The notes under the pieces are model-generated. The model was not told the origin of the DNA. It ran no database searches and saw nothing but the letters and a program-made list of their open reading frames with translations. Both the position numbers and the translations under genes were made by a program. Below, piece by piece: positions 10,131 to 11,152 of a stretch of 64,000 nt of DNA. Numbering within the stretch: position 1 is the first letter of the stretch; each line of letters starts with the position of its first letter. Location of the stretch: the sequence record PZ347775.1; one strand, 5' to 3'. The stretch comes from a phage.

Positions 10131-10206
10131 TGGTCGAGGCAGTAGGGATCGAACCTACGACCTAGGACTTAGAAGGTCCTTGCTCTTCCTTCTGAGCTAT
10201 GCCCCG
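10131..10206 (-). tRNA. tRNA-Arg (anticodon UCU)
   Basis: hand-folded cloverleaf; anticodon loop CUUCUAA, T-loop UUCGAUC, 7-bp acceptor stem, CCA encoded. Confidence 0.85.
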
Positions 10207-10210
10207 TAAT

Positions 10211-10286
10211 TGGGGTGACCGATGGGAGTCGAACCCATGACTACGAGAATCACAATCTCGAGTTCTACCAACTGAACTACGGCCAC
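10211..10286 (-). tRNA. tRNA-His (anticodon GUG)
   Basis: anticodon loop UUGUGAU, discriminator C73 typical of tRNA-His, T-loop UUCGACU, CCA encoded. Confidence 0.75.
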
Positions 10287-10400
10287 ATTAATACCTACTC
10301 CAACAATCAAGATGTCTTCACACGAAATTAAGAGAAGAGTGATCAGTTCAACCCCGATAATCGCGTCAAGTAGATATTAATGTGACAGTTGTCACAAATT

Positions 10401-10475
10401 TGGCGGACGTGATAGGATTCGAACCTATAACCAATCGCTTAACAGGCGATCGCTCTGCCATTGAGCTACACATCC
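10401..10475 (-). tRNA. tRNA-Asn (anticodon GUU)
   Basis: anticodon loop CUGUUAA, D-stem GCUC/GAGC, T-loop UUCGAAU, discriminator G, CCA encoded. Confidence 0.8.
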
Positions 10476-10479
10476 AAAT

Positions 10480-10566
10480 TGGTGGGGAGTGATGGAGTCG
10501 AACCACCCGAGTCGCAATGACAATGGATTTACAGTCCACACCGCTACCTCTACGGGATAACTCCCC
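10480..10566 (-). tRNA. tRNA-Tyr (anticodon GUA)
   Basis: 87 nt with long variable arm; anticodon loop CUGUAAA; discriminator A; perfect 7-bp acceptor stem. Confidence 0.75.
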
Positions 10567-10579
10567 TTAATTCTTAATT

Positions 10580-10654
10580 TGGTGGCCCTGGGTGGAATTG
10601 AACCACCATCTGGCGATTATGAGTCGCTTGCTTGAACCTTCCAGCTACAGGGCC
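10580..10654 (-). tRNA. tRNA with anticodon CAU (Ile2-type as in T4, or Met)
   Basis: anticodon loop CUCAUAA; T-loop UUCAAUU; perfect acceptor stem; D-stem only 3 bp. Confidence 0.7.
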
Positions 10655-10655
10655 T

Positions 10656-10731
10656 TGGTGCTGATTGACGGAATCGAACCGCCGACCTTCTCATTACAAG
10701 TGAGTTGCTCTACCTACTGAGCTAAATCAGC
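10656..10731 (-). tRNA. tRNA-Thr (anticodon UGU)
   Basis: anticodon loop CUUGUAA; D-stem GCUC/GAGC; T-loop UUCGAUU; CCA encoded. Confidence 0.85.
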
Positions 10732-10736
10732 AAAAC

Positions 10737-10826
10737 TGGCGGAGGCGATAGGATTTGAACCTATGAGTCGCCGGAGCGACTGCCGGTTTTCAAGACCGGT
10801 GCATTAAACCACTCTGCCACGCCTCC
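10737..10826 (-). tRNA. tRNA-Ser (anticodon UGA)
   Basis: 90 nt, long variable arm GUCGC/GCGAC; anticodon loop CUUGAAA; CCA encoded. Confidence 0.85.
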
Positions 10827-10828
10827 AG

Positions 10829-10902
10829 TCTCCATACAAGGATTTGAACCTTGGACCTCCTGATCCCAAATCAGGCGCTCTACCAAACTGAGCTACACGG
10901 AG
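10829..10902 (-). tRNA. tRNA-Pro (anticodon UGG)
   Basis: anticodon loop UUUGGGA; T-loop UUCAAAU; CCA not encoded, abuts tRNA-Ser (T4-style Pro-Ser dimer). Confidence 0.8.
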
Positions 10903-10912
10903 TAAATTAAAT

Positions 10913-10986
10913 TGGAGCGGATAATGAGAATCGAACTCACATCATCAGATTGGAAGTCTGAGGTAATGCCATTATACGATATCCGC
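10913..10986 (-). tRNA. tRNA-Gly (anticodon UCC)
   Basis: anticodon stem UCAGA/UCUGA, loop CUUCCAA; discriminator U; CCA encoded. Confidence 0.85.
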
Positions 10987-10991
10987 AAATT

Positions 10992-11078
10992 TGGTGCGAG
11001 AAGTGGGACTCGAACCCACAAGGAAATCATTCCGCAGCATTTTAAGTGCTGTGCCTTTACCAATTTGACCATTCTCGC
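10992..11078 (-). tRNA. tRNA-Leu (anticodon UAA)
   Basis: 87 nt with long variable arm; anticodon loop CUUAAAA; T-loop UUCGAGU. Confidence 0.85.
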
Positions 11079-11079
11079 G

Positions 11080-11152
11080 CTGGGAATAAAGGACTCGAAC
11101 CTTTGCATCCTGGAATCAAAATCCAGTGCCTTACCAACTTGGCTAATTCCCA
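11080..11152 (-). tRNA. tRNA-Gln (anticodon UUG)
   Basis: anticodon loop UUUUGAU; perfect acceptor stem UGGGAAU/AUUCCCA; discriminator G; CCA not encoded. Confidence 0.8.

Follow-up and report, generated by a model that had tools for sequence, protein, structure and literature searches.

Why does a phage that follows T4 closely through its tRNA region encode eleven tRNAs, among them species for Tyr, Asn and His, where T4 encodes eight? We addressed this question in a 64,000-nucleotide stretch of phage DNA (sequence record PZ347775.1; hereafter the window), in which all of the tRNA genes fall within positions 10131-11152. The window comes from a Tequatrovirus that is not T4, and its eleven-tRNA arrangement is already known. 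The locus is very probably the Tequatrovirus tRNA/stable-RNA unit in its segB-free RB3/T2L-type allele, together with a hairpin/tRNA-His cassette and an open reading frame (ORF) found in phage T2L, and with a difference from T4 that goes back to homing by SegB.

ARAGORN identified exactly 11 tRNA genes in the window, all of them on the minus strand. Their order as transcribed is Gln(UUG), Leu(UAA), Gly(UCC), Pro(UGG), Ser(UGA), Thr(UGU), a CAU species, Tyr(GUA), Asn(GUU), His(GUG) and Arg(UCU). An independent search with the Rfam model RF00005 (gathering score 29 bits, with membership also judged by cloverleaf features) placed all 11 above the gathering score, 10 of them at 59-74 bits (E 1e-10 to 1e-14). 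In the ARAGORN drawings all eleven cloverleaves show acceptor stems of 7 bp, anticodon loops of 7 nt and standard T arms. CCA is encoded in nine of the genes, eight of which are followed by a CCA-A(A/T)T junction; the Gln and Pro tRNAs, whose genes lack it, would require CCA addition. The original prediction, made from the sequence alone, had listed these same eleven tRNAs, with the same anticodons where it gave them, and had credited T4 with eight. Both statements hold: the T4 reference has eight tRNAs and lacks Tyr, Asn and His, and all three are called here by the predictors.

The array occupies the same genomic position as the T4 cluster, between the T4 gene trna.2 and the stable-RNA genes rnaD and rnaC. 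From Gln to Thr the two arrays are collinear, as had been predicted. Leu, Pro and Ser are identical to T4 at every aligned base, Thr has 3 changes, and Gln differs in its anticodon arm alone. After Thr, T4 has Ile-segB-Arg, whereas the window has CAU-Tyr-Asn-spacer-His-Arg-ORF. In the T4 reference segB is a 666-bp GIY-YIG homing-endonuclease gene lying between tRNA-Ile and tRNA-Arg. An alignment of the tRNA region loses homology to T4 inside the CAU tRNA and regains it exactly at rnaD, and we therefore interpret the difference as the replacement of a block rather than the insertion of three genes. The canonical eight-tRNA arrangement, with its T4 alleles, is thus not the one present: identity is 47/72 for CAU/Ile and 49/70 for Arg(UCU), segB is missing, and there are eleven tRNAs. 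T4 also differs in not encoding CCA in tRNA-Ser.

It had originally been proposed that the locus is a novel expansion of the T4 set, produced by inserting three genes into a spacer between two tRNA subclusters. The absence of Tyr, Asn and His from T4, and the T4 order of the six upstream tRNAs, are what such an insertion would leave behind. T4, however, carries segB at that position rather than a spacer only, and the three genes are not simply extra, as the CAU and Arg alleles and a 116-aa ORF were exchanged along with them. The implied novelty fares no better, since the arrangement in T2L, RB1 and RB3 was published in 2008 (PMC2330249), with annotated examples in well over a hundred genomes. 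We consider a novel three-gene insertion extremely improbable. The flanking genes, described in the prediction as near-identical to T4, are indeed T4-like, but that wording overstated the case: the aligned blocks are 94-97% identical.

Block replacement by a known allele is supported by comparison with published relatives. The tRNA regions of T2L, RB1 and RB3 (EMBL AJ880101, AJ884577 and AJ884578) have neither segB nor the T4 tRNA genes that flank it, and carry Met/Ile(CAU)-Tyr-Asn-Arg instead (Brok-Volchanskaya et al., 2008, NAR; PMC2330249). Primers that the study designed against Asn, against Tyr and against the ORF downstream also match the window sequence. RB10, which belongs to the species Tequatrovirus RB3, has the ten-gene order Gln-Leu-Gly-Pro-Ser-Thr-Met-Tyr-Asn-Arg. 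Eight of the window tRNAs (Gln, Leu, Gly, Pro, Ser, CAU, Tyr and Asn) are identical to those of RB10 at every aligned base, with Arg at 74/76 and Thr at 72/76. The location between the trna.2 homologue and rnaD/rnaC, the gene order, and the identities of the CAU, Tyr, Asn and Arg genes all agree with the segB-free RB3/T2L-type allele, with His interposed between Asn and Arg.

The 1101-bp array is covered over at least 80% of its length in 329 deposited phage records, and the Tyr-Asn-spacer-His stretch to the same extent in 187 (among the matches listed, the annotated ones bear Tyr, His and Asn labels). A copy of the tRNA-His gene at 99% identity or higher is present in 170 phage records. Variable content of the T-even cluster (8, 10 or 11 tRNA genes) has been documented since 2008, with SegB homing as the published explanation for part of it, and counts of 8 or of 11 tRNA genes are given routinely for Tequatroviruses in genome papers. 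The finding as first stated adds nothing new.

Several observations connect the difference from T4 to SegB. When T4 is crossed with T2L, segB enters the T2L cluster by homing, and ~1250 bp that carry Met, Tyr, Asn, Arg and ORFs are excluded; the preferred 27-bp SegB recognition site was mapped within the tRNA-Asn gene of T2L, in its 3' part (PMC2330249). This site (GGTTCGAATCCTATCACGTCCGCCAAA) is intact in the window tRNA-Asn gene, and it differs from the weaker site in tRNA-Ser at exactly G6, A16, G18, A26 and A27, as stated for T2L (PMC2330249). A BLAST map of the window against T4 gave no segB homology. Because the preferred site is intact and segB is absent from the window, the phage is predicted to act as a recipient, not a donor, in SegB-mediated exclusion. 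The difference from T4 would thus reflect SegB homing, segB sitting where tRNA-Asn (in T6) or Tyr and Asn (in T4) would otherwise lie. The T6 order Thr-Met-Tyr-segB represents the intermediate state.

An exchange is suggested by the Asn-Arg junction, which reads CCAAATACG in RB10 and CCAAAT[...His...CCCCAAT]TACG in the window. Comparison of these two sequences points to cassette exchange at CCA-A(A/T)T junctions, which would supply microhomology for the gain and loss of cassettes. The features of the unit are collected in Table 1.

Table 1. Features of the tRNA/stable-RNA unit of the window and its borders, in the order of transcription; fractions are identical positions over aligned positions.
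Feature	Positions	Strand	Basis and remarks
Upstream ORF, homologue of T4 trna.2	11250..11537	minus	phrog_2023; in a block ~95% identical to T4
tRNA-Gln(UUG)	11079..11152	minus	ARAGORN, Rfam; no encoded CCA; 65/73 to T4, 73/73 to RB10
tRNA-Leu(UAA)	10992..11078	minus	ARAGORN, Rfam; long variable arm; 87/87 to T4 and RB10
tRNA-Gly(UCC)	10913..10986	minus	ARAGORN, Rfam; 73/74 to T4
tRNA-Pro(UGG)	10828..10902	minus	ARAGORN, Rfam; no encoded CCA
tRNA-Ser(UGA)	10737..10826	minus	ARAGORN, Rfam; long variable arm; CCA encoded
tRNA-Thr(UGU)	10656..10731	minus	ARAGORN, Rfam; 73/76 to T4, 72/76 to RB10
CAU tRNA	10580..10654	minus	ARAGORN, Rfam; 75/75 to RB10, 47/72 to T4 tRNA-Ile; RB3/T2L allele
tRNA-Tyr(GUA)	10480..10566	minus	ARAGORN; Rfam 30.2 bits; short 3-bp variable arm; 87/87 to RB10, 85/87 to T6 tRNA-Tyr
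tRNA-Asn(GUU)	10401..10475	minus	ARAGORN; Rfam 74.1 bits; 75/75 to RB10
Preferred 27-bp SegB recognition site	10399..10425	minus	Sequence match; 3' part of tRNA-Asn plus 2 nt
Structured 114-nt Asn-His spacer	10287..10400	minus	Small hairpin after Asn, then ~95-nt element closed by a 14-bp AU-rich stem
tRNA-His(GUG)	10211..10286	minus	ARAGORN; Rfam 65.1 bits; C73, CCA encoded, U at -1
tRNA-Arg(UCU)	10131..10206	minus	ARAGORN, Rfam; 74/76 to RB10, 49/70 to T4; RB3/T2L allele, its sequence not related to that of T4 tRNA-Arg
116-aa ORF between Arg and rnaD	9764..10114	minus	phrog_3355 (E = 6e-54), of unknown function; present in neither T4 nor RB10
rnaD-like (T4 species 2 stable RNA)	9649..9764	minus	103 identical positions over T4 rnaD 4-118
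rnaC-like (T4 species 1 stable RNA)	9503..9641	minus	136/139 to T4 rnaC
Intrinsic-terminator-like hairpin and T run	9429..9452	minus	10 bp, 7 GC; pattern match only, count not above shuffles

The sole lead at this locus worth specialist attention is the tRNA-His gene with its leader. The tRNA has the bacterial-type GUG anticodon and C73, but position -1 (window position 10287) is U, and the G-1 of a typical tRNA-His is thus not encoded. In E. coli hisR, to which the gene is 80.3% identical, G-1 is present. RNase P retains G-1 on tRNA-His. [quoted passage not shown] The U in the window is shared by other array-borne copies. Among viral contigs, position -1 is G in 62 of 62 stand-alone host-like tRNA-His genes and T in 9 of 11 array-borne ones, and another six phages in culture, spread over Gelderlandvirus, Jiaodavirus, Angelvirus, Kanagawavirus and mycobacteriophage Bxz1, have T there in every case (6/6).

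The spacer that precedes tRNA-His folds with a minimum free energy of -30.7 kcal/mol (z = -2.98), and the 3' strand of its closing stem ends at position -1 of the tRNA. When viral contigs were scanned with a 15-mer from the spacer interior, the matches were mostly due to chance; just 8 genuine copies turned up across all loci examined, and the covariation test is therefore based on 7 sequences. In these, 99% of cells in the stem are paired and four pairs are changed on both sides, against 39-48% paired in shifted-register controls. The stem is kept across Tevenvirinae genera, with an interior that ranges from ~67 nt (two unrelated types) to a 4-nt loop (Kosakonia phage 305). Within the arrays examined, the leader stem abutting the 5' end measures 14-15 bp for His and no more than 8 bp for every other tRNA. 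Spacer and tRNA-His form one 190-bp cassette between Asn and Arg, common to Jiaodavirus, Gelderlandvirus and other Tevenvirinae. A permissive Rfam search of the spacer and the rnaC/rnaD region returned no family besides tRNAs, and a literature search for phage tRNA-His without G-1, or for a conserved leader hairpin, gave nothing specific.

These features could reflect an undescribed route of maturation or identity, or a non-translational role, for array-borne phage tRNA-His without G-1, accompanied in T4-like phages by a His-specific leader hairpin of 12-15 bp; we regard this as a long shot. The hairpin might be a processing signal, hairpin-directed 5' processing might keep an extra 5' nucleotide on the tRNA, or the tRNA might act as a decoy for tRNA-targeting defence. 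If real and functional, a G-1-less tRNA-His with a leader hairpin bears on the identity of tRNA-His and on the purpose of phage tRNAs.

By homology with T4, the array, the 116-aa ORF and the rnaD-like and rnaC-like genes would form one transcription unit, which likely ends at the hairpin downstream of rnaC. The leader between the trna.2 homologue and tRNA-Gln is almost identical to that of T4. We do not claim an internal promoter in the Asn-His spacer, because its TTGACG has no convincing -10 element. It is established for T4 that host RNase P and 3' enzymes process the cluster, and the genes of the window would be cut out in the same way.

What the mature tRNAs would do can be approached from codon use, which we compared between 72 window ORFs (19,312 codons) and 43 annotated E. 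coli genes (13,869 codons). Codons read by the T4-type tRNAs have high phage/host ratios (AGA 7.6×, ATA 3.45×, GGA 2.8×, ACA 2.8× and TCA 2.7×). Asn is the most enriched amino acid (1.58×) and Tyr the second (1.54×), with AAT at 2.35× and TAT at 1.92×. The eight T4-type tRNAs would thus read A-ending codons that the phage over-uses, and the Tyr and Asn tRNAs would top up its two most over-used amino acids.

A second role is suggested by work on host defence. The T-even tRNA locus has recently been shown to be an anti-defence hotspot, both through tRNA-Tyr acting against Septu and through SegB-driven amplification. The tRNA-Tyr of T6 rescues infection from Septu, which cuts tRNA-Tyr in its variable loop, and T4, which lacks tRNA-Tyr, cannot escape Septu (Chihara et al., 2026, Nat Commun; PMC13096335). 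The tRNA-Tyr of T5 counters retron-Eco7, and the Lys, Thr and Asn tRNAs of T5 are counted among anti-defence tRNAs as acting against PARIS. The PARIS nuclease AriB cleaves tRNA-Lys and tRNA-Thr(UGU) and, secondarily, tRNA-Asn(GUU), with tRNA-His(GUG) a probable minor cleavage (PMC12409363). Against the E. coli AriB motif U36-A-A-U-C|C, the window tRNA-Asn has U36-A-A-G-C-G, with G39 and G41 in the positions of U39 and C41. Tyr at least, and plausibly Asn and Thr, would buffer the phage against host defences that cleave tRNAs.

Several points weigh against this picture of a processed, functional unit. Promoter and terminator scans gave counts not above those of shuffled controls. The E. coli codon reference is small, at 43 genes. 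His is the most depleted amino acid of the phage relative to E. coli (0.56×; CAT 0.64×, CAC 0.41×). Efficient charging of the tRNA-His by host HisRS is doubtful, because the identity nucleotide G-1 is absent. The sequence link to an experimentally validated anti-defence tRNA exists for Tyr only (85/87 to T6), not for Asn or His, and T6 tRNA-Tyr is itself cleaved by Septu, with a rescue that depends on dosage (PMC13096335).

The codon and defence data also feed explanations that reduce the extra tRNAs to a single cause. All three might serve nothing but the translational demand of an AT-rich phage against the host tRNA pool. The enrichment of Asn and Tyr and of their U-ending codons fits this account, as do the strongly over-used A-ending codons read by the eight T4-type tRNAs. 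His, however, is the most depleted amino acid and both of its codons are under-used; demand compensation therefore does not account for tRNA-His. Supply and demand explain Tyr and Asn, not His, and even for Tyr there is the demonstrated anti-defence role of the T6 homologue. As an explanation of all three genes, pure supply is unlikely. Somewhat less unlikely, though still doubtful, is a mainly anti-defence array, in which Tyr, Asn and His, three of the four tRNAs with GUN anticodons, replace or out-titrate host tRNAs cut by immune nucleases, for instance Septu/retron PtuAB and PARIS AriB. The close T6 relative of tRNA-Tyr neutralises Septu and the T5 tRNA-Tyr neutralises retron-Eco7. Furthermore, tRNA-Asn(GUU) is a biologically relevant secondary target of AriB, tRNA-His(GUG) is probably cleaved to a minor extent (PMC12409363), the window tRNA-Asn departs from the E. 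coli AriB motif at positions 39 and 41, and His is left over by codon demand. Yet a validated relative exists for Tyr and not for Asn or His, the phage lacks tRNA-Lys, the prime target of PARIS, and Tyr and Asn are also well accounted for by demand. The shared GUN anticodons also led us to consider a nuclease of colicin-E5-type specificity; it is backed neither by a tool result nor by a paper, and the link is pure conjecture that counts against the anti-defence account.

The tRNA-His invites an explanation of its own, namely that it is poorly charged without G-1 and is not a normal adaptor, acting instead as a decoy or a regulator, or travelling as the passenger of a mobile 'hairpin + tRNA' cassette. 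In line with this, U stands at -1 in the window, KpV477 and SonariX where E. coli hisR has G, and the same contrast separates array-borne copies (9/11, and 6/6 cultured phages) from stand-alone ones (62/62 with G). The missing G-1, with its 5' phosphate and its pair with C73, comprises the major HisRS determinants (PMC4357726). The phage also has a low demand for His, and the conserved leader stem that abuts +1 is specific to His. On the other hand, the gene scores highly as a canonical tRNA (65 bits), its C73, CCA and GUG anticodon are in place, its conservation at 99% or above in 170 records argues for selection on a tRNA-like function, and poor charging might be offset by high expression. 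We find a non-adaptor tRNA-His improbable on balance. The segB-free RB3/T2L-type unit, with its additional His cassette, remains our reading of the locus.

Individual tRNA genes provided further observations. The CAU tRNA is most likely of the tRNA-Ile2 type and would read AUA after lysidine modification, because it has prophage relatives annotated as tRNA-Ile, sits in the slot of T4 tRNA-Ile and is matched by over-use of ATA. Known tRNA-Ile(CAU) genes resemble it more than tRNA-Met does. Its best full-length match in E. coli (81.6%) is a prophage gene annotated as tRNA-Ile by PGAP, and its E. coli tRNA-Ile matches have two tRNA-Arg genes beside them and lie downstream of the antiterminator gene Q of a prophage. 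Its nearest relative in E. coli, borne by a prophage, is in strain WP5-S17-ESBL-10 (2848057-2848732), where tRNA-Ile is followed by two tRNA-Arg genes, a cluster that we take to be of the lambdoid ileZ-argN-argO type. ARAGORN and many annotations label this gene tRNA-Met; on the E. coli matches we prefer an Ile2-like identity as the more probable.

In tRNA-Gln, 8 of the 17 positions of the anticodon arm (11110-11126) differ from T4 and T6, and the remainder of the gene is identical. The stem-loop is CUGGA-UUUUGAU-UCCAG in the window and UAGCA-CUUUGAC-UGCUA in T4/T6, with RB10 agreeing with the window. The pattern resembles an arm swap and recalls published nuclease-evasion changes of phage tRNAs. 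At the 3' end of tRNA-Ser (the 10737-10739 region), the alignment shows CCA encoded in the window and RB10 but not in T4, so reliance on the host CCA-adding enzyme differs between the two alleles. For tRNA-Tyr, the low Rfam score raised the question of a pseudogene, which is ruled out by complete identity to RB10 (87/87) and 85/87 identity to the experimentally active T6 gene. Copies of tRNA-Tyr also occur beyond T4-like phages: they are ~96% identical in the rV5-like phages V5, naswa and phiWec193, and 84-93% identical over partial lengths in the ~110 kb phages 3sent1 and fp01, which we assume to be T5-like. This distribution suggests that a single tRNA-Tyr gene may have spread horizontally among unrelated coliphages.

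Among the protein-coding neighbours, the 116-aa ORF corresponds to 'trna.2' of the T2L paper (T2L primers #24 and #25 match) and is distinct from the T4 gene trna.2 upstream of Gln. A 157-aa ORF (8905-9378, minus strand) lies between the e.8 homologue and rnaC; it belongs to phrog_2280, of unknown function, and has no counterpart in T4 58-108 kb. Pfam gave no match for either ORF and a sub-threshold DUF5092 hit only for the upstream ORF, and a PHROGs search of the 116-aa ORF and its neighbours returned only families of unknown function. Elsewhere in the window, the T4 homing-endonuclease genes segC (T4 80217-80775) and segD (T4 106521-107311) are also missing, at sites ~19168-19173 and ~44927-44988. 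Further gaps without homology to T4 (3454-4239, 7762-8341 and 12169-12825) correspond by position to the T4 denV/ipII/ipIII, e.7 and ipI regions.

Overall, the window is most similar to Escherichia phages ECO07P3 and ECO07P2, at ~98% across its first 25 kb. These two and other Tequatrovirus phages, including AR1, SH7, slur02 and vB_EcoM_G50, have a 1101-bp array that is 98.7-99.9% identical to that of the window, with 11 annotated tRNAs. ECO07P2 has the same eleven tRNAs in the same order, with the same ORF following Arg. The differences within this group are confined to single nucleotides, one of which, in ECO07P2, falls in the 3' strand of the leader stem.

RB10 and T2L differ from the window in that Asn runs straight into Arg, with no spacer and no tRNA-His. 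T2L resembles the window in having the 'trna.2' ORF after Arg, which RB10 lacks, and differs in carrying an ORF ('trna.1'), as inferred from its primer map, in the slot of the window tRNA-Thr. The tRNA-rich region of T6 shares the near-identical tRNA-Tyr (85/87). In T6, however, segB directly follows Tyr where the window has Asn, Pro and Ser are absent, and the CAU gene has the T4 allele. Having no segB, the window phage cannot follow T6 in amplification driven by SegB.

Related tRNA-His genes (81.6-98.7% identical) are found in Jiaodavirus (KpV477, JD18 and KP185), Gelderlandvirus (Melville), Kanagawavirus (Kosakonia phage 305) and Enterobacter phage SonariX. All share U at position -1 and the same closing stem of the leader, and in KpV477 and SonariX the whole spacer/His cassette is ~91% identical to that of the window. 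These arrays differ in being larger (13-16 genes), in placing His after Gln (after Asn in Kosakonia phage 305) and in the interior of the leader, which is of a different type or reduced to a 4-nt loop.

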